Assembly: GCA_048881705.1 (NCBI GenBank)
Contig: JBHLSH010000057.1
Location: 1 to 25,941, forward strand
DNA from: Candidatus Heimdallarchaeota archaeon
GTDB lineage: Archaea; Asgardarchaeota; Heimdallarchaeia; Hodarchaeales; Hodarchaeaceae
Reading direction: 5' to 3'
Length of the DNA: 25,941 nucleotides
Translations under genes and position numbers: made by a program
In this document: one piece after another, positions 4,894 through 20,117 of the stretch
Position numbering within the stretch: the first letter of the stretch is position 1
How the letters are laid out: each line of letters opens with the position of its first letter
The notes under the pieces: generated by a model
Told to the model about the DNA's origin: nothing
Seen by the model: the letters and a program-made list of their open reading frames with translations, nothing else
The model's database searches: none

Positions 4894-5172
4894 TTATTTG
4901 ACCCGCTTTATTAAATGCCAGCCATATTTAGTTTTAACAGGAATTTGCGTCATCTCGCCCTTCTTGAGGGCAAACGCTGCCTTTTCAAATTCCCTAACCG
5001 TTTTACCTCGTGTAATGAATCCGATGTTTCCGCCTTTTTTTCCACTGGAATCCAATGAATGTTCACGGGCTAATTGTTCGAAATTTGCGCCCGTATTAAT
5101 CAGCTCGATTAGTTCCTCGGCCTTGGTTCTCCCTTTGACAAGTATGTGTTTTACCTGGATCTTGCTTGACAT
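4894..5172 (-). CDS. Parvulin-type peptidyl-prolyl cis-trans isomerase (single domain)
   Basis: VKHILVK, FEQLAREHSLD, GGNIGF, EFEKAAFAL and PVKTKYGWHLIK are canonical PpiC/parvulin motifs. ATG is preceded by GTGA. Confidence 0.93.
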   Translation of the reverse strand: MSSKIQVKHILVKGRTKAEELIELINTGANFEQLAREHSLDSSGKKGGNIGFITRGKTVREFEKAAFALKKGEMTQIPVKTKYGWHLIKRVK

Positions 5173-5204: not shown

Positions 5205-6065
5205 TTATCTGGGATTTTTCTGTTTAATTATGGTTTTGGGAATTTCCTCTTTGTAGGTAGGAGGTGGCTGGGATTTATCGTCTCTCGACGGAGATTTGCT
5301 TCGAATTGGTTGTGGAGGACGCTTGTTCACTATTTTCTTGGGGATCTTGGTTTTCATTCCGCGAGGCGGCTTTTTCTGTTTTCCAGGAGTTTCACTTTTT
5401 ATATTATGAGGCGGTTGCCGATTTACATTCTTTTTGGATTTGAGAGTAGGTGGCAATCGCCTGATTCGATCTTTTGGGATTGGATTATCTTTGTCCGTGA
5501 CGGGAGGTGGTCTGTTCACCCTATTTTTAGCTTTAGATTTAGCGGAACCAAGTGTTGTTGGATGAATTCTCCTAGAGGCGGTACCTGGAGTCTTTTCACT
5601 GATTTTAGGAGGTAATGGCTGATTCGTCACCCAATTCGTCTCTGAATTTCTCTTTCCCGTTCTAGAGGGAGGTTGTTTGGCTACAATTTCAGTTTTTGGC
5701 GGGAAAACGCTACTAGTGTTAGGTGGTTCTTTAGTTTTAAATTTCTTCTCAGATAACCTTTCATTATTTGGGATAGGGTCTTCAAGAATGATTGGGGGTG
5801 TGACATTAACAAATTCTTCTTTCCTTGATTTTTTTGGTCTAAACCCTTCCCTAGAGGGAATGAAAGGTTCCTCCTTGGGAATATCTGCGATCGAATCTTG
5901 ACGTGGGGGTGGAATTCCGAATCCTTTTAGCTTCGAGGATGAATCAGGGGTTTTATGTTTGATAAATGCTGAGGAATTGGGATCAGGAGTCTTTTCTTGA
6001 ATAAATTCTGAAATGGAGCCCTTGGGGATCTTATCTTTGATTTTCTTTGATTTTCTTAAACCCAT
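5205..6065 (-). CDS. Pro/Lys/Arg-rich, probably intrinsically disordered protein with quasi-repeats
   Basis: 286-aa ORF with ATG and AGGT upstream. It has almost no hydrophobic core and recurrent VN[RK]xPP and [KE]TP motifs. It ends 32 nt before the parvulin ATG. Confidence 0.7.
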   Translation of the reverse strand: MGLRKSKKIKDKIPKGSISEFIQEKTPDPNSSAFIKHKTPDSSSKLKGFGIPPPRQDSIADIPKEEPFIPSREGFRPKKSRKEEFVNVTPPIILEDPIPNNERLSEKKFKTKEPPNTSSVFPPKTEIVAKQPPSRTGKRNSETNWVTNQPLPPKISEKTPGTASRRIHPTTLGSAKSKAKNRVNRPPPVTDKDNPIPKDRIRRLPPTLKSKKNVNRQPPHNIKSETPGKQKKPPRGMKTKIPKKIVNKRPPQPIRSKSPSRDDKSQPPPTYKEEIPKTIIKQKNPR

Positions 6066-6179: not shown

Positions 6180-6800
6180 TTATCTCCCCATCACGAAACC
6201 GACTCCAGAAATCAGGAAAAACAGTCCATATAAAACGCCAATCAGGTCATGTGAGTAGAAGTAACCCACCATTAGAAACAATGTCCCGAAAATAAAGAAT
6301 GTAATTATGGCAGTCCACTCTGCACTGGGACCCCTCTGGGATTGGGCGGTAATGCGTATGAATTGGTATCGTGTGAAACTACGAATTAACAATGCGGAAG
6401 AAACAGCCAAGTAGGGGAATGCCAAAATAGAAGCCAACCCGATCGAGAGGGTTGCCGTTTCATTCCCCGGAAGAACATTGATAACAAACGAAAGCATGGA
6501 ATTTCGTCCGAGGGGGAACATAGGCGCAACAAAGAGCACTAACAAAGGAATGATATTAGCTAGCGAGAGGAAATAAATTTCATTCAGCGTGGCCTTATGA
6601 TCTAGATAAAAAAACATACGTAAAAAGTAGAATATTGTGACTGTCGCGTAAAGGGTTAAAAACAACAAATCCAAGGCAGTTTCGTCTTGTTGTTGTATAA
6701 AAAAGAACACAGTGGCCGAAATCCCTAGTAAAAAAGCAAAGGAGGCGAGTGTGTGACGTGCGGCCATGGCATTATCATCTATTTGGGTATTCTGGATCAA
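6180..6800 (-). CDS. Hypothetical integral membrane protein (~6 TM)
   Basis: About six hydrophobic 18-24-aa segments. Start is either TTG 6800 or the ATG of MAARHTL. An AAGAA-TATATTT element ~30 nt upstream suggests its own promoter. Confidence 0.75.
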   Translation of the reverse strand: MIQNTQIDDNAMAARHTLASFAFLLGISATVFFFIQQQDETALDLLFLTLYATVTIFYFLRMFFYLDHKATLNEIYFLSLANIIPLLVLFVAPMFPLGRNSMLSFVINVLPGNETATLSIGLASILAFPYLAVSSALLIRSFTRYQFIRITAQSQRGPSAEWTAIITFFIFGTLFLMVGYFYSHDLIGVLYGLFFLISGVGFVMGR

Positions 6801-6959: not shown

Positions 6960-8069
6960 TCACCTTCCCTTGTTATATGATTTGATTATCTGGGCATACT
7001 GCCGTCCTGACACTCGAATAGCGGAAGAAGAGGAGAGGTGTTTGTTACATCGAGAGCAGGCTCCAGCTACTGCGATCCATTTCTGGAATTCATTGCCATG
7101 AGCAGGATATCTGCAGTGTGGACAGATCACCACTTCTTTGTGATCTTCTATTGGAAACTCATAACAAAAGATACATCTAAAATCATCTTTGCTAATATTT
7201 CTTCCCATAGGGACATATTTAGACAAATTTGTTCTTGTTACTTTCGCCATACTCTGTTGGGCAGTCTGTACCTGTAATCCGGGAGCCACACGGACATCCC
7301 GACGGATATTTTGGGTTCGAGAAGCAGCACTTCGAGTGTTTGATGATAATCTGGGCTGTGGGGAGCGCCGTTCTGATATTGATCTACGATCTCTTGATGA
7401 TCTCGGCCGTATCGTCCGAGAAGAGGTCTGTCGGGTACGAGGAACCCGTTTAAACGGAACAAGAACAATTTTCATTATATAATGTTGAATAAATAAACCC
7501 AAACTTAAGATACAAAACAGTAAGCCCCCAAATTCAATTAATCCCTGTTCAATCCAATAGAGGAAGAATATGATGACCAAGGAAAAATTATGGACAATCA
7601 CCGCTTCGTTCGGAAATGGACGTCGATTTATAAAAAATTTAGGATACTGGCCAATATAATAACGGCGAAGAAGTATAAGTAGCGCTCCCATTGATGGGAT
7701 CACGATAATTAAACCAAAGAGGTTCCAGAAAATACTTACGCCACCCAAATTTAGAAAACTTAAATCTAACGATATATCGAAAAGAGAAGTTTGGAGCATA
7801 TCATTAATCCCAAAGGAAGCCAAGTGGGCCAAGAGGCTTCCTCCCACCCCTATCAGAGTAGGAATCACAAGGAAGGTCGCAGAAGCTAACGGCGCGTTAT
7901 ATGACCTAAAATAACGCCATTCGTCTACCAGTTTTATCAGGAGAAGACTAACAAAGGTGAGAAAGAAAAATGTTAAAGCGACGTTCTGAGGTTGACCGAT
8001 GACCAGAGAAAGAATGCCGAAGACAAATCCAATGACAAACACAACAATGTAGGTATTCCGTTTGATCAC
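6960..8069 (-). CDS. Multi-pass membrane protein with C-terminal RING-like zinc finger (putative membrane E3 ligase)
   Basis: About 6 TM helices, an Arg/Ser-rich linker, then C-x2-C-x13-C-x2-C-x4-H-x2-E-x3-W-x6-C-x2-C (CIFC...CPHCRYPAHGNEFQKWIAVAGACSRC). It is the last gene of the E1/E2/JAMM run. Confidence 0.8.
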   Translation of the reverse strand: MIKRNTYIVVFVIGFVFGILSLVIGQPQNVALTFFFLTFVSLLLIKLVDEWRYFRSYNAPLASATFLVIPTLIGVGGSLLAHLASFGINDMLQTSLFDISLDLSFLNLGGVSIFWNLFGLIIVIPSMGALLILLRRYYIGQYPKFFINRRPFPNEAVIVHNFSLVIIFFLYWIEQGLIEFGGLLFCILSLGLFIQHYIMKIVLVPFKRVPRTRQTSSRTIRPRSSRDRRSISERRSPQPRLSSNTRSAASRTQNIRRDVRVAPGLQVQTAQQSMAKVTRTNLSKYVPMGRNISKDDFRCIFCYEFPIEDHKEVVICPHCRYPAHGNEFQKWIAVAGACSRCNKHLSSSSAIRVSGRQYAQIIKSYNKGR

Positions 8070-8103: not shown

Positions 8104-8982
8104 TTATTCGTGGTCATATTCCAGAAACATCGTTTTACCTTCTGCCAACGGTAACAAGGTTTGGATCATCTGAGGAAGGCTTTCTAAGGGACAGTTCAAA
8201 ACTCGGAAGCTTGGCTCCTCCCACGTCCGTAGGTCCTTCCTTAATCGAAAAATCTTGAATCCATACGAGGAAGAGGAAATTTCGGTCGGATCAATAACCA
8301 AAGCAATGGGAGCCGCCAAATGAGAACCTTGACTGCCAAGCCTTTGATAACGTACCTGGGTTTGAAAATCCGTTTTACTCATGAAAGGGGAATAGGATGG
8401 ATGAGAATGGTACCACCCGAGTATTCGGTGTCCTGCCTTCACTGCATCCTCATAAACTTTCACCATGCTTTGCGGATCTTGGATTTGTGCGTTGACATTT
8501 GTACCGTGTCCAATTGGATAGGCATCCGTAACCACCAAGCATGTTAAAGGAGTGTTTGGATGTTCCACATGTCCCGTAAGAAGGCCAATGACCTCTACCC
8601 ATTCAGAGCGGGGAAGAGAATCATTAGCATACTTTAAAGCATGAAGCGCCAGCTTTAGATATGCCTTAAGGTTAAGTTTCACCCGAGGTGGCTCATGAAG
8701 TTCACCTAAATCAATGTCCAAATCAGTTACAACATCATCTCTCCTGTGTTTTGTATCCGTCCGCGTAGCGGGAGGAGATCGATCTTCATCGGAATGGAGG
8801 GTCATGACGGAAGGTGTTCTATGATGCGATCCCTTAGATAACGCCCGTTCCAGTGATTTATCAGGGGTAGAGACTTTCAATGTGATAGTTGACAATTTGG
8901 GGTCGAACATCAATGATACGTCTCGCAGGAAGAATTCAAAGGTACTAGGACCATGGCCTCTACGTCTTGGTTCTTTATCTAT
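8104..8982 (-). CDS. JAMM/MPN+ metalloprotease, Rpn11/CSN5-like (Ubl isopeptidase)
   Basis: EVIGLLTG (catalytic Glu), GWYHSHPSYSPFMSKTD (H-x-H-x7-S-x2-D) and ALVIDP. Start is uncertain: TTG/ATG at 8913/8910, but the frame is open to 8988 with an ATA at 8982 six nt behind an AGGTGA SD. Confidence 0.92.
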   Translation of the reverse strand: MDKEPRRRGHGPSTFEFFLRDVSLMFDPKLSTITLKVSTPDKSLERALSKGSHHRTPSVMTLHSDEDRSPPATRTDTKHRRDDVVTDLDIDLGELHEPPRVKLNLKAYLKLALHALKYANDSLPRSEWVEVIGLLTGHVEHPNTPLTCLVVTDAYPIGHGTNVNAQIQDPQSMVKVYEDAVKAGHRILGWYHSHPSYSPFMSKTDFQTQVRYQRLGSQGSHLAAPIALVIDPTEISSSSYGFKIFRLRKDLRTWEEPSFRVLNCPLESLPQMIQTLLPLAEGKTMFLEYDHE

Positions 8983-9010
8983 GATTTTTCACCTTTTTCC
9001 GGAACAGTTG

Positions 9011-9538
9011 CTACCATTTCTTGTTGGCATATTTCTTTGTAATCTCTTGGGCTTTTTTCTTAAACTTCTCAGGACTATTCAAATACTCCACAGCGGCCTT
9101 CTTATTGAAAACATCCCTAGGGTTGGTATATGCCGCATCCACATCCAACATTGCAAGAATCGAATGAATCACCGTGGTAATATTTTTGGAAGGGGACCAC
9201 CCATCGGGCCGTCCAACTAGATCGGGGTCAATGAGAGCCAAACAGATATTCCGTTTCCCCTTATATTCATCAGGCTTAGGCCAAAAATTGGGATGCCAGA
9301 TTGGAGTATGTAAACGGACGAATGGGGGAATATAGGGATAATTTCCTCCGAACTTGATTTCGAGCTTGAATTTGCCCTTGCTGTACGGGGTTCCTTTCGG
9401 GCCTTCAAGGAGCAGGGCTAGGTGCTCAACAGATTTTTTTGGTCCCGGGAAAGCTTTCAGCTGTTTTATTGTCCCGCTTTTGTACAGCTTCTTCAGCTGA
9501 TTATAATCTTTGGAGATGCGTTTTATTCGAATTGAAAT
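9011..9538 (-). CDS. E2 ubiquitin-conjugating (UBC) enzyme, ~175 aa, probable ATT start
   Basis: Manual extension of track ORF 9011..9241 gives (M)SIRIKRISKDYNQLKKL...LLEGPKGTPYSKGKFKLEIKFGGNYPYIPPFVRLHTPIWHPNFWPKPDEYKGKRNICLALIDP...GWSPSKNITTVIHSILAML...NPRDVFNKKAA. It carries GPxGTPY, YPxxPP, HPN and the catalytic Cys. AGGAGGT lies 8 nt upstream of ATT at 9538. Confidence 0.93.
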   Translation of the reverse strand: MSIRIKRISKDYNQLKKLYKSGTIKQLKAFPGPKKSVEHLALLLEGPKGTPYSKGKFKLEIKFGGNYPYIPPFVRLHTPIWHPNFWPKPDEYKGKRNICLALIDPDLVGRPDGWSPSKNITTVIHSILAMLDVDAAYTNPRDVFNKKAAVEYLNSPEKFKKKAQEITKKYANKKW

Positions 9539-9551
9539 TGTGGTAAACCTC

Positions 9552-10796
9552 CTATTTGTACTGTAAATTCAAATATATTTCGGGGACATTCTCAAACCCC
9601 GTTACTAATACGGATTCGTGATTTCGAATGTTGAGATCCTCGAGGGATAAATCTAAGGAGATTTCATCTACTTCCGAGGAATCGATTCGAAAAACTGTTG
9701 GAGGAAATTCAGAATCGAAAGAGATTTTCTTCTTGTTAGCAATAAAATCAATGACCTTACGAACAGAATGGCTTGGTTTTGTTCGAATTCGATACAAGGG
9801 AGACCTACGAGGCCCACACAATTCACATTCTTGATTTCGAGGTTTAGGAATTTCGTAAAACTTCCCCGTTAGGCCGTTGTATATTATGTAGTTTAGCTGG
9901 AGCGTTCCAAGTTTCTGCTCATCAGAAGGTGTACGTAAATGATGAAGAATCTTAACCGCTTCTTGAGACTGGATTGAAGCGACAACTGTGTTTATGGTGA
10001 TCACTGTTGGTTCGTGGTTATCGATGATTTGAATGATCTGATCTACTGTGAATGGATTTACACCTGGGAAATGCTCTTGAAGAAGAGAGTTTGCGTAAGC
10101 TTGAACTTCCTTTATTTCGTCTATGTGCAAGATGTCGGCATTTCGACCATGGTCTTGTTCAAATTTTAGTTGCCCCTTCAATATACAATGGGCAGGACGA
10201 CGAGGAACACCCACTAAAGTACAAGCACCTAGTTGATCCTGTTCCCGTTCAGTCAAAGGATCACATTCCAAGCAAGCGTTGTGGAATGGCCATACAACAT
10301 AGATATGGCCATTGTAGGCGGCGGTGCCTGCATCTATCAATGGTTTTCTGAAGTGGATCGCACGACGATTAAGCTCCGATCGCGCCTCAATAGAATCTAA
10401 TCCAGCAACAAACAGATCAGCTTCGCAATAAAGCTGAGGAGCGAGGTCTTGCAGCGCCATATGATATCCTTCAACTTGAATGAAGGGATTTAACTTACGA
10501 AGCTGTTTGGCTGCGTATTCGGCTTTGGAGCTCCCTTCTGGTGCGCCAACAAAGAGAACCTGCCTATTAAGATTCGAGTACTCGATTGTGTCAAGATCCA
10601 CAAGGATGAGCCTGCCTACTCCTACCATCGCGAGGTTTTTCGCGATTTCCACTCCGAGACCTCCGATTCCTGCGAGGAGAACCGTGCTCTGTTTCAATAA
10701 CTCCTGGTTCCAGCCGGGAAGCCGGAATTGCCTATCAAAGCGTTGTTTTTCCTCATCCGAAAGGAGTTCACTTGTGAAATTCGACCGTTGGCTCAT
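9552..10796 (-). CDS. E1 Ubl-activating enzyme, Uba3/Uba2-like, with C-terminal ubiquitin-fold domain
   Basis: RFDRQ, GIGGLG, DLDTIEYSNLNRQ, two Zn pairs (CLEC, CELC), catalytic ACTLVGVPRRPAHC and a ~85-aa C-terminal beta-grasp-like tail. Start is ATG 10796 (MSQRS) or TTG 10814 abutting the Ubl stop. Confidence 0.95.
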   Translation of the reverse strand: MSQRSNFTSELLSDEEKQRFDRQFRLPGWNQELLKQSTVLLAGIGGLGVEIAKNLAMVGVGRLILVDLDTIEYSNLNRQVLFVGAPEGSSKAEYAAKQLRKLNPFIQVEGYHMALQDLAPQLYCEADLFVAGLDSIEARSELNRRAIHFRKPLIDAGTAAYNGHIYVVWPFHNACLECDPLTEREQDQLGACTLVGVPRRPAHCILKGQLKFEQDHGRNADILHIDEIKEVQAYANSLLQEHFPGVNPFTVDQIIQIIDNHEPTVITINTVVASIQSQEAVKILHHLRTPSDEQKLGTLQLNYIIYNGLTGKFYEIPKPRNQECELCGPRRSPLYRIRTKPSHSVRKVIDFIANKKKISFDSEFPPTVFRIDSSEVDEISLDLSLEDLNIRNHESVLVTGFENVPEIYLNLQYK

Positions 10797-10814
10797 CTGT
10801 TGTTCCCTACGCAA

Positions 10815-11213
10815 TTAACCTGCGGTTGATACAGGAATGATCAAACATTCTAGACCGTCTTCGATTTCGTAGTTGCCTAATATGTCATCTGGATCCAGTG
10901 TTCTCCCAGAAATAGATAAATGAAAATCCTGGGGATCAAGACCAAAGATCTGGCCAACTGTTATGGTGAGTTCTCGAACTGGCATTTCTGAATCAACCAT
11001 GAGTTTTTCGAGCTTCTCACCAGGACCAATCGTCGAGCGAAAATACAGATTTACACGGACGCCATGAGGAATTTTGGAGCTGGCTGGAGTTTTAGAATCA
11101 ATTCCAGGAGAAGGAGCTGGTTTAGGAGTTTCGGTATCATCTTCTGCCAAGTCTTCCATATCATCGAAGTCTTCATTTTCTTCTAGGGGTTTACGTTCTT
11201 CATTTTCAGACAT
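10815..11213 (-). CDS. Ubiquitin-like protein A (132 aa; acidic N-terminal tail; ends IPVSTAG)
   Basis: The C-terminal ~80 aa align by eye to ubiquitin (LYFRSTIG...IFGLDPQDFHLSISGRTLD...LGNYEIEDG...LIIPVSTAG). ATG at 11213 has AAAGGTGA upstream. The track's 11279 start lies in the promoter. Confidence 0.9.
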   Translation of the reverse strand: MSENEERKPLEENEDFDDMEDLAEDDTETPKPAPSPGIDSKTPASSKIPHGVRVNLYFRSTIGPGEKLEKLMVDSEMPVRELTITVGQIFGLDPQDFHLSISGRTLDPDDILGNYEIEDGLECLIIPVSTAG

Positions 11214-11274
11214 GTAATCACCTTTCCAACTAAATAAGGTTGGGTACATGTATCTAAGAGAACGGAGAGTGAAG

Positions 11275-11292
11275 TACACTTTAAACCTTCCT
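11275..11292 (-). promoter_or_regulatory. Candidate TATA box for the UblA-E1-E2-JAMM-RING operon
   Basis: The minus strand reads AGGAAGG-TTTAAA ~70 nt upstream of the UblA ATG, downstream of the UblB oligo-T tract. Confidence 0.4.
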
Positions 11293-11406: not shown

Positions 11407-11757
11407 TCATCCGGCTGTACTATGGGGGATTAACAGGATTTCATCCCCGTTATTAATCCCATAATCTCCGATTGGAGCAGACTCATCCAACGTACGTCCC
11501 GCGTGAGACAGGTGGAAGTCATCGGGATTCAACCCGAAAATGTTAGCTAACGTGTCACGAACGTCGCGAACAGGGGTATTTTCACCAACCGAGAGCTTTT
11601 CGGTTCGTTCAGGGCCCACTGTAGATTTAAAAAAAACATTCTTTCGTGGACCAGCACCAGTAGCAGATACAGGTGTTTTAGATTGGGCTGGAGTTTTGGA
11701 TTTAACTTGAGTTTGCCCTTCCTCAAGATCAAAGTCTAAATCTTCAAAGTCACTCAT
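11407..11757 (-). CDS. Ubiquitin-like protein B (116 aa; acidic N-terminal tail; ends IPHSTAG)
   Basis: NVFFKSTVG...IFGLNPDDFHLSHAGRTLDESAPIGDYGINNGDEILLIPHSTAG is a clear ubiquitin beta-grasp pattern and a paralogue of UblA. Confidence 0.92.
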   Translation of the reverse strand: MSDFEDLDFDLEEGQTQVKSKTPAQSKTPVSATGAGPRKNVFFKSTVGPERTEKLSVGENTPVRDVRDTLANIFGLNPDDFHLSHAGRTLDESAPIGDYGINNGDEILLIPHSTAG

Positions 11758-12478: not shown

Positions 12479-15400
12479 ATGGAGTACCCGACCTTTATCC
12501 GATTTACCCTCAATATTAAACGGAGAGTGCCCATTTGGATCGTTATCCCAGTCATTTTAGCTGCCATTCTGCCAATCCCGTCTGATTCTTCCCTATTGAC
12601 CACCGATCCCTCTTTTTCCCGATCTTCGCAAAATTCCGCCTTTCCCAAGGAGACATCTCCACAGAGGAAGATCCAGCAACAAGGGGCGCAAGGTTTTGGT
12701 GATCCAATAGTAGCGATTTCGGATATCCGCGGTAACATCCAAAGCCTTGAATTTTCCCCCAGTGGGAGGTTTCTTGCGGTCGGTGGTCTTAATCCGGGTG
12801 CGGGGGGAGTCTGGGTCTGGGATGTTTCCCAAGGTGTCTTGCAATGGTTTAACGATCAGGCCCATCTTTCACTAACGAAATCCGTCGCTTTTTCTCCGGA
12901 TGAAAAGGTTCTTGCCTCAGTTGGCCACCGGGGGGGTATCGGATTGTGGAACATTTCGGATGGCACCAGAATCACGCTGTTCCCTGAATCAACGAATTAC
13001 AATTTTCAGCATCTTTTGTTTTCTCCGGATGGCACAGAACTCATTGGAAGTAGTAATGTCGGTTTTCTATATTCAGATGAAGCATATCTAACTTTTTGGA
13101 ATGTCTCCTCAGGAGAGCTTACAAAAGCGGTGATGCTCTCGTCTGGTCCCTCAGAGGATATGGCACTTTCTCCTAATGGTTCTCTTTTGGCAACGGGGAG
13201 TAAAACAGGTATCTATAGGGTATCTGTTTGGGATCTGACCACACCTGAGCCTGAACTCGTTCTTACATTCTCAGGGGAACGCTATACAACAACGGGAAGT
13301 TTGGATTTCTCGCCAGATGGTACTCTCTTAGTATCAGGGGGTAGCGATGGAATCCTTAATATTTGGAACCTGACGAGTAGGACAGAAATCCCCGGATCCC
13401 CAGTAATTGGCCATGACCTTGGGATGACATCCGTGAAGTTTTCGCCACAGGGAAGTATATTGGTCTCCGCTGAAGGAGGAGGGACCGGTACCAAACAGAT
13501 TAAATTCTGGGATACTACGACCTGGGAGAATTTTCACACCATTTCAGTAGAGACAGGTGCGCAATATCTGGCGTTCCATCCATCAGGAAATATTCTCGCC
13601 GTGAATGACTTTAGACTTGGAATTGTTTTTAGGAGTGTCGTTAGAAATCAAGCACAGGTTCAAAGACTGACATACCACACCAGTCAGGTCACTTCATTAA
13701 CATTCGGCTTCAATGATTTAATATTGGCCTCAGCGGACAGTAGTGCCAATATTCAACTCTGGAATGCATCAAACCAGCAGGCCTTGGAAAATTTCAAGGG
13801 TTCACCACCCACCATTCTTGGTACATCCATTACACGTTCAGCCGATGGGCAATGGCTGGCGTCGGGGAGTAGTGATCAAATCATTCGCTTCTGGAATGTA
13901 TCTACTGGGCAAGTCCAGTACACCTTGAGTGAGCATGAAACGAGTGTGATTTCTGTGGCATTTTCTCCCGATGGGCAATGGTTGGCCTCGGGAGATGATA
14001 AAGGAATGATTAAACTCTGGAACGTGACAAGTCCTACAAATTTTACGGTTCATCTCAATTTAACAGGGCATTTCTCTGCGGTAACTAGCCTTCAATTTTC
14101 CCCCGATAATCGTTTCTTGGCGAGTGGAAGTCATGCCTCGAGTATCTTCCTATGGAATCTTACCACTGGGAAAATTATAGCATCCCTACCTGGCCATAAA
14201 GATCGCGTCACATCAGTAGCGTTCGCACCTGACGGGACAAAGCTGATTTCAGCCAGCTGGGATGGAACTGTGAAAATATGGGCTATTCCAAGTGGGGCGA
14301 TAAGTGGAGTTGAATTAGCGCATCCTGATGCTGTCAATACGCTTGATTACTCCCAAGATGGAAAATTAATCGCATCAGGGGGAAGCAATGGCATAGTTCG
14401 CATATGGAATGCCACTACTGGTCTTTTACTAACCAGTTTTCATGATCAAGCACAGGAGATTCTCGCCCTGGCCTTTTCCCCTGATACAACTCTATTGGCT
14501 GCCGCAGGACGGGAGTTAGACGTTTTCCTGTATGACCTTGATCCACTCCCACTAGATACGGATAGGGATTCAATGGACAACCCTTGGGAGACAACCCATG
14601 GAATGGATCCCCTGAATTTCTGGGATGCATTTGATGATTCCGATGCTGATGGACTGATGAATACTATGGAATATTGGCTCGACACGAATCCACGCGAGCC
14701 TGATAGCGATTCCGATGGCATTCCTGATTTCTGGGAGTACATTTATCGCTCTGATCCATCCACCCCTGATGAGGACCAGGATGTCGATCACGATGAGATT
14801 CCAAACCTCTATGAATACCAGATGGGATTGAACAGCTTCATTAACGATAGTTGGAAAGATCTCGATGGAGATAGCTTAACCAACCTTGAGGAGGCTGAAT
14901 TTGGGAGCTGGGCAAACCGATCAGACAGTGATTTTGACGAGATGCCTGACTGGTATGAGTATCAGGCGGGGGGTGTATGGTTTGGTGTAAACTTTTTCCC
15001 AAATTTGGATCCATTAGTGAATGATTCTCAAGGAGACCTAGATAGGGATGGGATGCCAAACCTGTATGAGTACCTATATGGGTTAAAAGCATGGGTCCCT
15101 GGTGATGCGCTCACAGATTCCGATAACGATGGGATTAATAATTTGGCAGAATATCGAGCCGGCACCAATCCTCGCGATTTTTGGAGCGTCCCTGTGGAAA
15201 GCAGAAGTATCCCTCATCTGCTCATTACTGCCCTCATTATTATTTTCCTGCTAAGTAATTTGGTTTACTTTCAAGGGAAACGCCTGCTACGAAAGCGCTA
15301 CATCAGAAAATTCGGCGCCCCTGATTACGCAGCAGCCAAACGGGTACAAGAGGCCAATCTTCCAAATTATAGGTCATTGTTACAAGCCCAAGAACAGGCT

Positions 15401-16165
15401 GATAAAACGTTAACAGAAGCCACGTCGCTCTATTATCAGGGTGAGGAGGAAGTAGCAACGGAAAAATTCATTCAAGCTTCTGAGGTGAGCCGACACCTCG
15501 GATATCTTCGGGTAATGCTTGAAGCAGATTTACGGGTAGTGTTGATTGCCAAGGAATCAGGGACTTTAAATGCCAATCATGTTGTCTTCCAACGTATTCC
15601 CCCGCTCCCATTGGATAACCCCTATACAACGGCGCTAATTCAGATGCTATCGGCAGTTCGGGAGGAACTCAACGACAATTGGGGTGCGGCAGAAAAGTTC
15701 TGGAACGAGGCGTTGCCCTCCGAGAGGTTAAGCCATGATTTTAGAACGACGTGTCAAGGCGCCTTGGTAGAATCGGCTTTCCGAACTTGGTTTTACAACC
15801 AGTCTAGTAAGAATCACGACCAAGTCCTTAGACGCCTAGAAGAATGGAAACAGTTGAGTGAGGCCAATGACCGTCCTGGGAGCTTGTGTCCATACTTCCT
15901 CTTTCAGGCCCGTTTTGCATTAGCTTCTTATGACTTTGAGGAAGTAGACACCTGGTTACAGAAATGTATCGAGGTAGCAAAGACCACAGGATTACATCAC
16001 TATCTACGGAGGGCCGAAGAAGCAAAAGGGGAACTAGTTCACCACAAAAAACGGATCGAAACCTTGGCTGAGGCAGAAAGGCTCCTCTCCCCCGAAGAAG
16101 CGGGAAAATTGGTGCAGCAATATCTTCAAAGAGCAATCCAGATCAAAGTAGATTATAAATCCTAA
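12479..16165 (+). CDS. Receptor-like membrane protein A: signal/TM, 14 WD40 blades, 8 DxDxDG Ca-binding repeats, TM, cytosolic TPR-like helical domain
   Basis: N-terminal KRR plus a hydrophobic stretch; 14 FSPDG...LAS...W[DN] units; DxDxD[GS]xx[ND]xxE repeats; TM HLLITALIIIFLLSNLVYF followed by basic GKRLLRKR; ~280-aa helical tail. Confidence 0.88.
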   Translation: MEYPTFIRFTLNIKRRVPIWIVIPVILAAILPIPSDSSLLTTDPSFSRSSQNSAFPKETSPQRKIQQQGAQGFGDPIVAISDIRGNIQSLEFSPSGRFLAVGGLNPGAGGVWVWDVSQGVLQWFNDQAHLSLTKSVAFSPDEKVLASVGHRGGIGLWNISDGTRITLFPESTNYNFQHLLFSPDGTELIGSSNVGFLYSDEAYLTFWNVSSGELTKAVMLSSGPSEDMALSPNGSLLATGSKTGIYRVSVWDLTTPEPELVLTFSGERYTTTGSLDFSPDGTLLVSGGSDGILNIWNLTSRTEIPGSPVIGHDLGMTSVKFSPQGSILVSAEGGGTGTKQIKFWDTTTWENFHTISVETGAQYLAFHPSGNILAVNDFRLGIVFRSVVRNQAQVQRLTYHTSQVTSLTFGFNDLILASADSSANIQLWNASNQQALENFKGSPPTILGTSITRSADGQWLASGSSDQIIRFWNVSTGQVQYTLSEHETSVISVAFSPDGQWLASGDDKGMIKLWNVTSPTNFTVHLNLTGHFSAVTSLQFSPDNRFLASGSHASSIFLWNLTTGKIIASLPGHKDRVTSVAFAPDGTKLISASWDGTVKIWAIPSGAISGVELAHPDAVNTLDYSQDGKLIASGGSNGIVRIWNATTGLLLTSFHDQAQEILALAFSPDTTLLAAAGRELDVFLYDLDPLPLDTDRDSMDNPWETTHGMDPLNFWDAFDDSDADGLMNTMEYWLDTNPREPDSDSDGIPDFWEYIYRSDPSTPDEDQDVDHDEIPNLYEYQMGLNSFINDSWKDLDGDSLTNLEEAEFGSWANRSDSDFDEMPDWYEYQAGGVWFGVNFFPNLDPLVNDSQGDLDRDGMPNLYEYLYGLKAWVPGDALTDSDNDGINNLAEYRAGTNPRDFWSVPVESRSIPHLLITALIIIFLLSNLVYFQGKRLLRKRYIRKFGAPDYAAAKRVQEANLPNYRSLLQAQEQADKTLTEATSLYYQGEEEVATEKFIQASEVSRHLGYLRVMLEADLRVVLIAKESGTLNANHVVFQRIPPLPLDNPYTTALIQMLSAVREELNDNWGAAEKFWNEALPSERLSHDFRTTCQGALVESAFRTWFYNQSSKNHDQVLRRLEEWKQLSEANDRPGSLCPYFLFQARFALASYDFEEVDTWLQKCIEVAKTTGLHHYLRRAEEAKGELVHHKKRIETLAEAERLLSPEEAGKLVQQYLQRAIQIKVDYKS

Positions 16166-16406: not shown

Positions 16407-19400
16407 TTGATCCAATTCGCTATCGACATCAAATGGAGAGAGTCTATTGGGATCTTTATCCTGATTATTTTGGCTTTCAGCTTTCGAATCCCATTTAATT
16501 CATCTTTACTGAGTGAAAACTCCTCCCTTTCCCGATCTACGCGCATTTCTAGCTCATTTATGGGGGAAAAACCATCGCTCAAGATTCACCAACAAGGGGG
16601 ACAGGATTTTGGTTCTTTGATCAATACTGCCCGTTTCTCCCATAGCGTAAGATGCCTGGAGTTCTCCCCCAGTGGGAAATTTTTTGCCGCGGGTGGCTCT
16701 GCCCACTTACGTACAAGCTCTGGGAGCATATCGCTTTACAATTTTTTGCAGGGCATCTTATTGTGGAGTAATTTGGCGGTTCATCTCTCTCAAACGGAAT
16801 CACTCGCGTTTTCTCCAGATGAAAGGATTCTTGCTACTGTTGGAAGACTTGGAGGGATGAAACTGTGGAATGTTTCGGATGGCACACAGATCTCTGTTTT
16901 CCCTGACGCAGAAAATCGTAGTTTTGAACACCTTCTGTTTTCACGGGATGGAACGGAAATCATTGCAAGTACGAGAGTTGAAGGAATAAGGGGGCAATAT
17001 GAGCAGGGATTTCTATCTTTTTGGAATGTTTCCTCAGGAGAGATGAAAAGCGAGGTTGAGCTACCTTATGGTGCGTCACGGGACATAGCACTTTCCCCCA
17101 ATGGCTCGCTTCTAGCCACTGGGAGTAACGAGCACGCGTCAGAAGGACAAAAGGTGTCTGTGTGGGATCTCTCCACACCGGAACTTGAGCTAGTTCACAC
17201 ATTTTCAGCACAAGGCACTGAAACTGTGCGAACCTTAGATTTCTCACCAGATGGAACCCTAGTTGCATTAGGGGTTTGGGATGGGAACGTTCGCATTTGG
17301 AACCTGACGAGTGGAACCGAAATCATTGAATCCCCATTAAGCCATGATCTCTCTACCGGCATATTAGTTTCTGTTAAGTTTTCGCCACAGGGCACAACAC
17401 TGGTCTCGGCAGCAGGAGATGATGTTGTTGGTACGCGAGAGATCAAATTCTGGGATACTACGACCTGGGAAAATTTTCACACAATCATATTAGAGAGAGA
17501 TGCCCCATTTCTTGCGTTCACGCCCTCAGGCGATATTCTAGCCGTGGGTAGCTATGAACAAGGAGTTGATTTCAGAAAAGCTGCCAGGAGCCAGGTACAG
17601 TTTCAGAGACTAATACACCACACTAGCCCTGTGACTTCATTAGCTTTCGGATCCAATGGTTTGATATTGGTCTCCACAGACAGTAATTCGAACATTCAAT
17701 TCTGGAATGTGTCAAACCAGCAAACATTGGTAAATTTCACAGGTTCGCCACCAACTGTTCTTGGGACATCCGTAGCACTTTCTGCTGGCCGACAATGGCT
17801 GGTCTCAGGAAGCAGTGACAATATCATTCGCTTCTGGAACATATCTAACGGTCAACTCCAGTACTCGTTAACTGGTCATGAAACTAGCGTACTTTCCGTC
17901 GCGTTCTCTCCCAATGGGCAGTGGTTGGCCTCGGGAGACGACAAAGGGATGATCAAACTCTGGAACGTGACGAATCCTACGAATTTTACGGTTCATTTCA
18001 ATCTGACGGGTCATTTCTCCGCTGTAACCAGTATTCAATTTTCGCCTGATAGTCGTCTATTGGCCAGTGGGAGTGCGCAATCAAGTATCCTTGTATGGAA
18101 TCTCACCACGGGGAAAACTATAGCATCATTACTGGGCCACAAGAACCGTATCACATCGATGGTGTTTGCTCCTGATGGAAAAAGCTTAGTTTCAGCTAGT
18201 TGGGATGGAACTGCAAAAATATGGGATATCCCAGGTGCAACGTTAAGTGAAGTCGAATTGCTGCATCCTGGTCCAGTTAATGCGCTTGAATACTCCCGAG
18301 ATGGAAATTTAATTGCATCAGCGGGGAGTGATGGAGTAGTCCGCTTATGGGAGGCCACCTCTGGTAATTTACTTAGTTCTCTCCGCGATCAAACTCGAGA
18401 AATTTTCTCTTTGGCCTTTTCTTTTGACACAACTCAATTGGCTGCTGCAGGTGGTGACTTGGATGTCTTCCTTTATGATCTAGATCCGCTTCCTTTAGAT
18501 ACCGATGGGGATGGTATGAGTAATCCTTGGGAGACCACATATGGTTTGGATCCCCTGGATTTCTGGGATGCATTTGCTGATCCCGATGGCGATGGGCTGA
18601 TGAATAATATAGAACATTGGCTTCTTACTAACCCAAACAGCGCTGATAGCGATAATGATAGCATTCCGGATCTTTGGGAACACCTTTATCATTCTGATCC
18701 AACAACCAATGATGGAAACCAAGATGTGGATCAAGACGGGCTTTCAAACTTGTATGAATACCAGATGGGATTAAACAGCTTCATTAACGATAGCAGGATG
18801 GATTTGGATGGGGATGGATTGACCAACCTTATCGAACAGGACTTTGGGAGCTGGGCTAACCAAACCGATAGTGATTTTGATGGGATGCCTGACTGGTACG
18901 AGTATCAGGCAGGGGGTGTATGGATAGGTGACAATTTTTACCCACGTTTGAATCCGTTGCAGAATGATTCACAGGAAGACCTAGATCGGGATGGGATGCC
19001 AAACCTGTATGAGTATCTTCATGAGTTTAAAGCGTGGGTCTCGGACGACGCACTCATAGACTCAGATAACGATGGGATTAATAATCTGGCAGAGTATCGA
19101 GCCGGCACCAATCCAAGGGATTTTTGGAGTGTACCGCTGGTAAGTGGAAGTATCCCTCATCTCCTCTTCATTATTGTCATTATTATCTTTATAATAGGTA
19201 ATTTGGCGTACTTTCAAGGAAGACCCCTGCTGCAGAGGCGCTACTTACGAAAATTCGACGCCCCTGACTACCCAACGGCCAAACGGGTTCAACAAGCCAA
19301 CCTTCCAAATTATGCGGCCCTATTACAAGCCCAAGAAGAGGTCGCCAAAATATTAACAGCTGCTGCATCGTTCTATTATCAGGGGGAGTCTCTGCTCGCG

Positions 19401-20117
19401 ACAGAAAAATTCATTCAAGCTTCTGAGGCCAGCCAACACCTAGGATATCTTCGAGGAATGGTTGAAGCAGATTTACGGGTAGTGTTGATTGCCAAGGAAT
19501 CAGGGACTTTGGCTGCCGATCATGCTGTCTTCCAACGCATTCCACCGATCCCATCTGATGACCCTTATACGGCCGCGTTAACCCACATGCTATTGGCTGT
19601 CAGGGAAGAAGTCAACGACAATTGGGGCGCGGCGGAGCATTTCTGGCACGACGCGTTACTCTCCGATCAGTTGAGGCATGATTTTAGAACGGCATGTCAA
19701 GCTGCTTTAGTAGAATCCGCCTTTCGAACCTGGTTTTACGACCAGTCCAATAAGAATCACAACCGAATCCTGAAGCGTTTGGAAGAGTGGCAATTGTTAA
19801 GTGAGGCCAGTAACCGGCCAGGGAGTTTGTGTCCCGTCTTCCTGTTCCAGGCGCGTTTTGCGTTAGCCCAATATGATTTTAAAGAAGTAGATAAATGGTT
19901 ACAGGAATGTATGGAGTTAGCCGAGACAACGGGCGTAACCCACTATCTGAAGCAAGCTGAGAAAGCGAAAGAGGAACTTGTTCACCACAAAGAGCGGATT
20001 GAGACCTTGATAGCAGCAGAAAGACTCCTTTCCCCTGAGGAACAAGGAAAACTGGTTCAACAATATGTTCGGAGAGCGATTCTAATCAAAGAGGATTACA
20101 CATCTCAAAAACCATAA
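16407..20117 (+). CDS. Receptor-like membrane protein B, tandem paralogue of 12479..16165
   Basis: Same domain order and co-linear sequence (e.g. shared IKFWDTTTWENFHTI, DSDNDGINNLAEYRAGTNPRDFWSVP, EADLRVVLIAKESGTL). TTG start behind GAGGT. Confidence 0.88.
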   Translation: MIQFAIDIKWRESIGIFILIILAFSFRIPFNSSLLSENSSLSRSTRISSSFMGEKPSLKIHQQGGQDFGSLINTARFSHSVRCLEFSPSGKFFAAGGSAHLRTSSGSISLYNFLQGILLWSNLAVHLSQTESLAFSPDERILATVGRLGGMKLWNVSDGTQISVFPDAENRSFEHLLFSRDGTEIIASTRVEGIRGQYEQGFLSFWNVSSGEMKSEVELPYGASRDIALSPNGSLLATGSNEHASEGQKVSVWDLSTPELELVHTFSAQGTETVRTLDFSPDGTLVALGVWDGNVRIWNLTSGTEIIESPLSHDLSTGILVSVKFSPQGTTLVSAAGDDVVGTREIKFWDTTTWENFHTIILERDAPFLAFTPSGDILAVGSYEQGVDFRKAARSQVQFQRLIHHTSPVTSLAFGSNGLILVSTDSNSNIQFWNVSNQQTLVNFTGSPPTVLGTSVALSAGRQWLVSGSSDNIIRFWNISNGQLQYSLTGHETSVLSVAFSPNGQWLASGDDKGMIKLWNVTNPTNFTVHFNLTGHFSAVTSIQFSPDSRLLASGSAQSSILVWNLTTGKTIASLLGHKNRITSMVFAPDGKSLVSASWDGTAKIWDIPGATLSEVELLHPGPVNALEYSRDGNLIASAGSDGVVRLWEATSGNLLSSLRDQTREIFSLAFSFDTTQLAAAGGDLDVFLYDLDPLPLDTDGDGMSNPWETTYGLDPLDFWDAFADPDGDGLMNNIEHWLLTNPNSADSDNDSIPDLWEHLYHSDPTTNDGNQDVDQDGLSNLYEYQMGLNSFINDSRMDLDGDGLTNLIEQDFGSWANQTDSDFDGMPDWYEYQAGGVWIGDNFYPRLNPLQNDSQEDLDRDGMPNLYEYLHEFKAWVSDDALIDSDNDGINNLAEYRAGTNPRDFWSVPLVSGSIPHLLFIIVIIIFIIGNLAYFQGRPLLQRRYLRKFDAPDYPTAKRVQQANLPNYAALLQAQEEVAKILTAAASFYYQGESLLATEKFIQASEASQHLGYLRGMVEADLRVVLIAKESGTLAADHAVFQRIPPIPSDDPYTAALTHMLLAVREEVNDNWGAAEHFWHDALLSDQLRHDFRTACQAALVESAFRTWFYDQSNKNHNRILKRLEEWQLLSEASNRPGSLCPVFLFQARFALAQYDFKEVDKWLQECMELAETTGVTHYLKQAEKAKEELVHHKERIETLIAAERLLSPEEQGKLVQQYVRRAILIKEDYTSQKP

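Follow-up and report, generated by a model that had tools for sequence, protein, structure and literature searches.

To which molecules, and where in the cell, do archaea attach their ubiquitin-like tags? The substrates of archaeal ubiquitin-like systems are an open question. The reconstituted archaeal cascades used small soluble RINGs with artificial substrates or substrates from the ESCRT (endosomal sorting) machinery (PMC5654768; 10.1101/2023.07.25.550441). Papers on archaeal ubiquitin speak of small RING finger or E3-like RING finger proteins (PMC5654768, PMC6043591, 10.1101/2023.07.25.550441), and one survey searched for ubiquitin ligases (E3) with the UFM1-ligase InterPro entry only (PMC9192718). 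The window analysed here, i.e. the whole stretch of 25,941 nucleotides of contig JBHLSH010000057.1 (GCA_048881705.1) from Candidatus Heimdallarchaeota archaeon, holds on its minus strand (6960..8069) a gene whose product has a polytopic membrane domain and a C-terminal RING-like finger. Is this membrane RING protein a ligase, and does the system then work at the membrane? Here, we argue from sequence comparison and structure prediction that the protein is probably the membrane-integral RING-type E3 of a conserved ubiquitin-like operon.

Layout and topology

The gene is an open frame for 369 residues, from a GTG start to a TGA stop at 6960-6962. We collected 36 close and 113 representative homologues, with 34 sequences in the close alignment, where MVxRNxY begins the homologues at the same place as the GTG start. 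The protein falls into three parts: a six-helix membrane domain (residues 1-204; 7458..8069, minus strand), a disordered linker rich in Arg, Ser and Thr (residues 205-290; 7200..7457, minus strand) and a RING module with flanking helices (residues 291-369; 6963..7199, minus strand), the last delimited by alignments, profiles and the structural model. An earlier note on this DNA, made from the letters alone, had read the frame as about six transmembrane helices, a basic linker and a C4-H-E-C2 finger, and this layout is confirmed.

Hydropathy and structure prediction agree on the number of helices. The Kyte-Doolittle scale gives six hydrophobic segments, at about residues 7-25, 30-48, 62-84, 110-134, 155-173 and 180-204. 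An AlphaFold2 model of the full protein, built on an alignment of 34 sequences, has a mean predicted local distance difference test score (pLDDT) of 79 and consists of six long helices, a disordered stretch at residues 205-271 and a compact C-terminal module. A second model, restricted to residues 1-212 and built on 72 sequences, reaches a pLDDT of 94 and a predicted template modelling score of 0.88. It has the six helices again, with a beta-hairpin in the outer loop between helices 3 and 4 and another in the cytoplasmic loop between helices 4 and 5, the latter basic and conserved.

The orientation comes from the distribution of positive charges. Averaged over the 34 homologues, the number of Lys and Arg residues is 1.0 in the N-terminus, 1.7 in loop 2-3, 5.8 in loop 4-5 and 17.6 in the linker, against 0.1 in loop 1-2, 0.1 in loop 3-4 and 0.7 in loop 5-6. 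By the positive-inside rule this predicts that both termini are inside (N-in/C-in) and that the finger faces the cytoplasm. The cytosolic C-terminus, which the earlier note had deduced from the basic Arg/Ser linker, is thus borne out by the close homologues. The linker itself carries 19 Arg and 13 Ser among its 86 residues, is modelled with pLDDT below 50 and differs in length among homologues.

Identity of the finger

The core of the finger (residues 299-341; 7047-7175, minus strand) reads C-x2-C-x13-C-x2-C-x4-H-x2-E-x3-W-x6-C-x2-C. Its eight presumed ligands and the tryptophan, i.e. C299, C302, C316, C319, H324, E327, W331, C338 and C341, are invariant in the 34 close homologues and in 62 diverse ones. 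The HGNEFQKW stretch, which with its Trp and the terminal CxxC had first drawn attention to the finger, is residues 324-331. R352, G355 and Y358, in the C-terminal strand and helix of the module, are invariant too, and in the AlphaFold2 model an N-terminal helix also belongs to the module. We also considered, and rejected, a RING-H2 reading with a C-x-H-x2-H arrangement. Its fourth ligand would be a Tyr here, at a place where family members have Y, H, F or K, while no member deviates from the CxxC pair. The ligands are thus C4-H-E-C2 and not the C3H2C3 of RING-H2. They would form a Cys2-His-Glu site 1 (C299, C302, H324, E327) and a Cys4 site 2 (C316, C319, C338, C341).

Does such a finger belong to the RINGs? 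When the 62 diverse family fingers were compared as a profile with solved domains, they matched the RING-H2 domains of RNF24 (E 1.5e-6), RNF4 (5.8e-4), ARK2C, EL5, RNF165 and Arkadia (about 1e-3), and the RINGs of HRD1/synoviolin and gp78 (0.04-0.09). Scanned singly, 44 of the same 62 members match Pfam Prok-RING_1 at E of 0.1 or less (best 1e-6); for zf-RING_2 the number is 36 (best 7.9e-7). The modelled finger (pLDDT about 90) was also searched with Foldseek, where RING and U-box domains lead (3lrq, Rad18, CHIP and Prp19, probability 0.96-1.0); neither PHD nor UBZ occurs among the structural matches listed. By profile and predicted fold the finger is thus a RING. A PHD or another treble clef is less likely. 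Pfam does give PHD matches in 15 of the 62 members (best E 0.011) and zf_UBZ matches in 38 (best E 4.4e-4, spanning the last CxxC only), but these matches are weak and partial, and we set both readings aside as less likely.

Many of the RINGs that match best are dimeric, with flanking helices. By analogy, the helices that flank the core in the membrane RING protein hint at dimerisation.

The profile searches also brought up a different kind of protein. Residues 313-356 (7002-7133) match zinc fingers at the C-terminus of WDR19/IFT144, a protein of intraflagellar transport (IFT) (E 7e-4), and Pfam Zf_2nd_IFT121 is matched by 35 of the 62 family fingers. This suggests that the fingers of IFT coat proteins may be RING-derived relatives.

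A glutamate at the sixth ligand position

The most unusual feature of the finger is Glu327, encoded by the GAA codon at 7089-7091 (minus strand). Its place at metal-ligand position 6 follows from the ligand alignment and from the Trp four residues further on, a typical landmark of RING-H2 and RING-v domains in a survey of plant RINGs (PMC5240574). All eight ligand positions are present with RING spacing in the 62 diverse members, with Glu at the sixth. A motif scan of 142 collected proteins gave 136 family fingers, 127 of them with Glu at this position; the others, the weakest and most distant, have His (7), Asp (1) or Ala (1).

The same genome encodes six other RING-like fingers, in frames of 114 to 1045 residues (C27:23124-23279, C77:12585-12770, C15:14578-14727, C155:1337-1504, C41:3635-3826 and C1:73587-73739). 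The five that were translated all have His at ligand 6. Four of them read C-x2-C...C-x2-C-x4-H-x2-H-x3-W...C-x2-C, and the fifth has the same ligands with Ser in place of the Trp. The substitution had been described as Cys to Glu. This holds relative to eukaryotic RING-H2 and C4HC3 fingers, but not relative to the distant fingers and the paralogues of the same genome, which mostly carry His, so that the change is better put as His/Cys to Glu. Since relatives have His or Asp there, and both are zinc ligands, it is likely, if not proven, that Glu327 ligates zinc as well. An invariant Glu at a zinc-ligand position would be, to our knowledge, an undescribed variant of the RING.

A conserved Ubl-E1-E2-JAMM operon

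The membrane RING gene stands last among the enzyme-type genes of a cluster that lies wholly on the minus strand. At the head is a ubiquitin-like protein (Ubl) gene (11407..11757; PF00240, E 2.8e-7), followed by a second Ubl gene with an acidic N-terminal extension (10815..11279), which matches PF00240 weakly (E 0.022) and has a counterpart in the same position of homologous locus L001. Then come an E1-like activating enzyme of the ThiF family (9552..10814; PF00899, E 6.3e-53), a conjugating enzyme (E2, UQ_con) of 175 residues (9011..9538; PF00179, E 1.5e-26), a JAB/MPN (JAMM) metalloprotease (8104..8913; PF01398, E 9.1e-14) directly upstream of the RING gene, and finally the membrane RING itself. 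Upstream of the codon for its catalytic Cys, the E2 lacks any ATG, GTG or TTG. Its start is an ATT at 9536-9538, nine nucleotides after a GGAGG and just past the E1 stop; the MSIRIKRI with which the homologues start aligns there, and a 98%-identical relative also has Ile at the start position.

The order E2, JAMM, membrane RING recurs at four homologues, of 45%, 40%, 34% and 28% identity, where genes for Ubl and E1 are also close by. We compared the places matched by a profile of the family with those matched by a profile of the operon-type E2 in 301 Asgard genomes. For 55 of the 60 best membrane RING places an operon-type E2 lies 1-2.1 kb upstream, on the same contig and strand. Four of the five exceptions are in fragmented assemblies (270-650 contigs) with the E2 on another contig, and one is a genome without E2 match; in one of the five the RING gene is close to the end of its contig. 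Both profiles are common in Asgard families f1, f2, f3, f4, f14 and f27, e.g. in f14, of whose 68 genomes 58 have the membrane RING and 67 the E2, and neither has a match in the 76 genomes of f11. Of the two proteins, the E2 is by far the better conserved: its aligned homologues are 58-83% identical, against 28-45% for the RING protein in the four loci examined.

The RING gene is thus clustered with genes for Ubl, E1-like, E2-like and JAMM/Rpn11 proteins, as in the archaeal ubiquitylation operon of the Caldiarchaeum type. Given this conserved membership, a membrane-integral E3 is the natural reading of the gene.

A probable membrane-integral E3

Might the finger work with the E2 of the operon? 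Ile300, after ligand 1, and Trp331, four residues after ligand 6, occupy the E2-contact positions of RINGs and are invariant in the close family. We also predicted the complex from alignments of E2 and finger together with two zinc ions, in three runs and with three controls. The score was 0.52 (runs 0.50, 0.56 and 0.52), against 0.00 for the best control; at least 97% of contacts are shared between runs, with a pLDDT of at least 88 for the partner. The score was calibrated on 80 solved complexes, of which 58 reached the mark, and on 110 mismatched pairs, of which 2 did; at scores of 0.60 or less, only 7 of those 80 complexes were among those that reached it, as were both passing mismatches. 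Besides, RING-E2 complexes are abundant among solved structures, so the prediction might reflect likeness rather than binding. It lends the E3 reading weak support.

Several observations weigh against this reading, and that modest prediction is itself one of them. The membrane RING protein scores 11.4 bits against Prok-RING_1 as a whole and 15.6 bits with the finger alone, below the curated gathering cut-off of 29.1 bits. Structural zinc sites seldom include a carboxylate, and if site 1 were weakened, the binding of E2 could be harmed. Many active RINGs (RNF4, BIRC7) have a linchpin Arg after the last ligand; here, that position is Asn342, followed by Lys343, both invariant in close homologues. 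The six other RING fingers of the genome could also serve the operon E2. Finally, family, profile and fold searches give the membrane domain no recognisable function.

These points raise the alternative that the finger is a non-catalytic module binding proteins or Ubl, akin to UBZ or PHD or serving as a dock for the JAMM protease, in a membrane adaptor or receptor that does not activate the E2. The partial zf_UBZ and PHD matches go in this direction, as does the weak complex prediction, and the Glu at a ligand position with the Asn at the linchpin position could mean that E3 activity was lost. Yet, the best matches of the finger in sequence and structure are the RING and U-box domains of active E3s, the Ile and Trp of the E2-contact surface have been kept in the close family, and the gene occupies the place of the RING E3 in other archaeal ubiquitin operons (PMC5654768). 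We regard the adaptor as unlikely.

By these predictions, six helices anchor the protein in the cytoplasmic membrane, N- and C-terminus lying inside, and some 85 flexible, basic residues serve as a tether that brings a cross-brace RING into the cytoplasm. Under the preferred reading, the finger would bind the Ubl-charged E2 of the operon through the usual RING surface (Ile300, Trp331) and promote discharge of Ubl onto lysines of any protein that the tether lets it reach. The targets would most simply be proteins of the membrane, or others to which the conserved membrane domain binds, and the adjacent JAMM protease would reverse the mark. The earlier note had proposed a ligase that tags membrane proteins. 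Its first half, a membrane-integral E3, is sustained by the RING identity, the predicted cytoplasmic side of the finger and the conserved Ubl-E1-E2-JAMM operon, whereas membrane proteins as substrates, and a part in endoplasmic-reticulum-associated extraction or in receptor down-regulation, stay conjecture.

The membrane domain and its RING-less paralogue

What does the membrane domain do? Pfam has no family that matches it, and NCBIfam has no match for the membrane RING protein or for its RING-less paralogue described below. A profile of the domain searched against all PDB chains finds at best a designed protein (E 0.17). Foldseek against the PDB gives probabilities of at most 0.15, a shape search of the ESM Atlas template modelling scores of at most 0.48, and no chain named Derlin, Doa10 or peroxin is among the 50 matches listed. 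The domain has no convincing relative in these searches, which is not proof of a new fold.

The next gene on the minus strand (6180..6767), which the earlier note had passed over, encodes a membrane protein of 195 residues without a RING, probably starting at Met12 of an open reading frame of 206 residues. We found 69 homologues of it, and a look-up in the ESM Atlas gave no informative neighbour. An hhalign comparison of this family with the membrane domains of the RING proteins gives a probability of 97.7 and, over 166 collinear columns that take in all six helices, an E of 2.1e-12, against E 0.13-0.3 for reversed-profile controls. By this alignment, the operon encodes two six-helix paralogues, with a RING on one only. 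In loci L001 and L002, the product of the gene after the RING gene shares 67% and 51% identity with the paralogue, which is thus better conserved than the RING protein. Consecutive locus tags place RING gene and paralogue side by side in three more genomes from NCBI (ACXAC8_05130/05135, ACFFCQ_02455/02450 and ACFFDT_27085/27090). The paralogue would probably pair with the membrane domain of the RING protein to give a two-subunit ligase, and from the sequences a heteromer of the two seems a reasonable expectation.

In a different view, the membrane domain is the functional unit, e.g. a channel, a transporter or a lipid-facing enzyme, perhaps together with the paralogue, and the RING mainly tags or regulates its own protein. 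We hold this view to be very unlikely. Another possibility is that the protein is a true homologue and forerunner of Hrd1 and gp78, with helices from a common ancestor, forming with the paralogue a ligase of the retrotranslocation type. The searches above brought up no demonstrable relative of the membrane domain. Homology to Hrd1 had been left as not shown, and so it stays: "Hrd1-like" describes a resemblance of layout only. Nor was any called gene in the loci that we examined seen to resemble Derlin, Sel1/Hrd3 or Cue1. That the protein is a forerunner of this kind we consider very unlikely as well.

Other neighbours of the membrane RING gene may deserve mention. Downstream of the paralogue lies a gene for a Lys/Pro-rich low-complexity protein of 286 residues (5205-6065, minus strand), with weak, compositionally biased likeness (E 2e-8) to the gene in the same position of L001. 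It is followed by a frame of 92 residues (4894-5172, minus strand) that by eye resembles a parvulin-type peptidyl-prolyl isomerase, with the C-terminus ...KYGWHLIKRVK. Just beyond the Ubl end of the cluster are two tandem genes on the plus strand (12479-16165 and 16407-20117), each for about 1230 residues. In the distant locus L003, a gene for a protein of 570 residues (8132-9844, minus strand) adjoins the membrane RING gene on the opposite strand and has faint or weak Pfam matches to CDC48_N, VWA and ubiquitin, by which a link to extraction or proteasome-type machinery is possible.

Implications for archaeal ubiquitin-like systems

In many Asgard lineages the operon E3 appears to be polytopic, with a conserved partner paralogue, which makes the membrane a likely place of action. 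Hence, Asgard archaea, the archaea related to eukaryotes, probably attach a ubiquitin-like tag at the membrane, as far as gene content can tell. Such a ligase would fit well with the ESCRT machinery of Asgard archaea, which binds ubiquitin (PMC9192718), and roles resembling endoplasmic-reticulum-associated degradation or sorting might be envisaged. Tagged proteins might then be sorted by ESCRT or extracted by Cdc48 and the proteasome. In the literature on archaeal ubiquitin we found no description of a polytopic Asgard operon RING, and none of its Glu ligand or its paralogue either, although our coverage is incomplete and a prior mention is possible.

If one asks where membrane-embedded RING ligases came from, the membrane RING protein is also a concrete candidate. 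One might go further and speculate that the core ubiquitin-like operons of Asgard archaea of the Heimdall/Hod and Loki types end in a two-subunit membrane ligase that recognises proteins within the membrane and was the forerunner of Hrd1-type RING ligases, so that ubiquitylation in the archaeal ancestor of eukaryotes began as quality control or sorting of membrane proteins. We consider this quite unlikely as it stands.

Comparison with known systems

Parts of this system have counterparts elsewhere. Plant RING-D domains have Asp at ligand 5 or 6 (PMC5240574) and are thus also otherwise complete RINGs with a carboxylate at a canonical metal-ligand position. The residue is Glu in the membrane RING protein, which has C-x2-C at ligands 3-4 and is an archaeal membrane protein; relatedness is not implied. 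Prokaryotes offer a parallel too, and a passage of PMC11354881 attributes their C4HC3-type RING fingers to Burroughs, Iyer and Aravind 2011. Prok-RING_1 (PF14446) and these fingers share with the present one the C-x2-C knuckle of ligands 3-4, the His at ligand 5 and the association with Ubl, E2 and JAB. Ligand 6 sets them apart, being Cys in Prok-RING_1, Glu here and His in the paralogous fingers of this genome.

In overall layout the nearest likeness is to Hrd1/synoviolin and gp78/AMFR, which also combine an N-terminal multi-helix domain with a cytosolic C-terminal RING and share the H-x2-[ligand]-x3-W pattern. Their RINGs are C3H2C3 instead of C4-H-E-C2, and the long tether between membrane and RING is a further difference. 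The membrane domain of Hrd1 has eight helices, not six.

In genomic setting the counterparts are the small RING finger protein (srfp) that the operon of Candidatus Caldiarchaeum subterraneum encodes as its E3 (PMC5654768) and the "E3-like RING finger proteins" of Asgard ubiquitin operons (PMC6043591). All are RINGs encoded with Ubl, E1-like, E2-like and Rpn11/JAMM genes and all are presumed E3s of compact archaeal cascades. The Caldiarchaeum srfp is small and soluble, whereas the present protein has 369 residues and six transmembrane helices and falls outside that description. It further differs from the srfp by its long basic tether, by the invariant Glu at ligand 6 and by the RING-less membrane paralogue encoded next to it.
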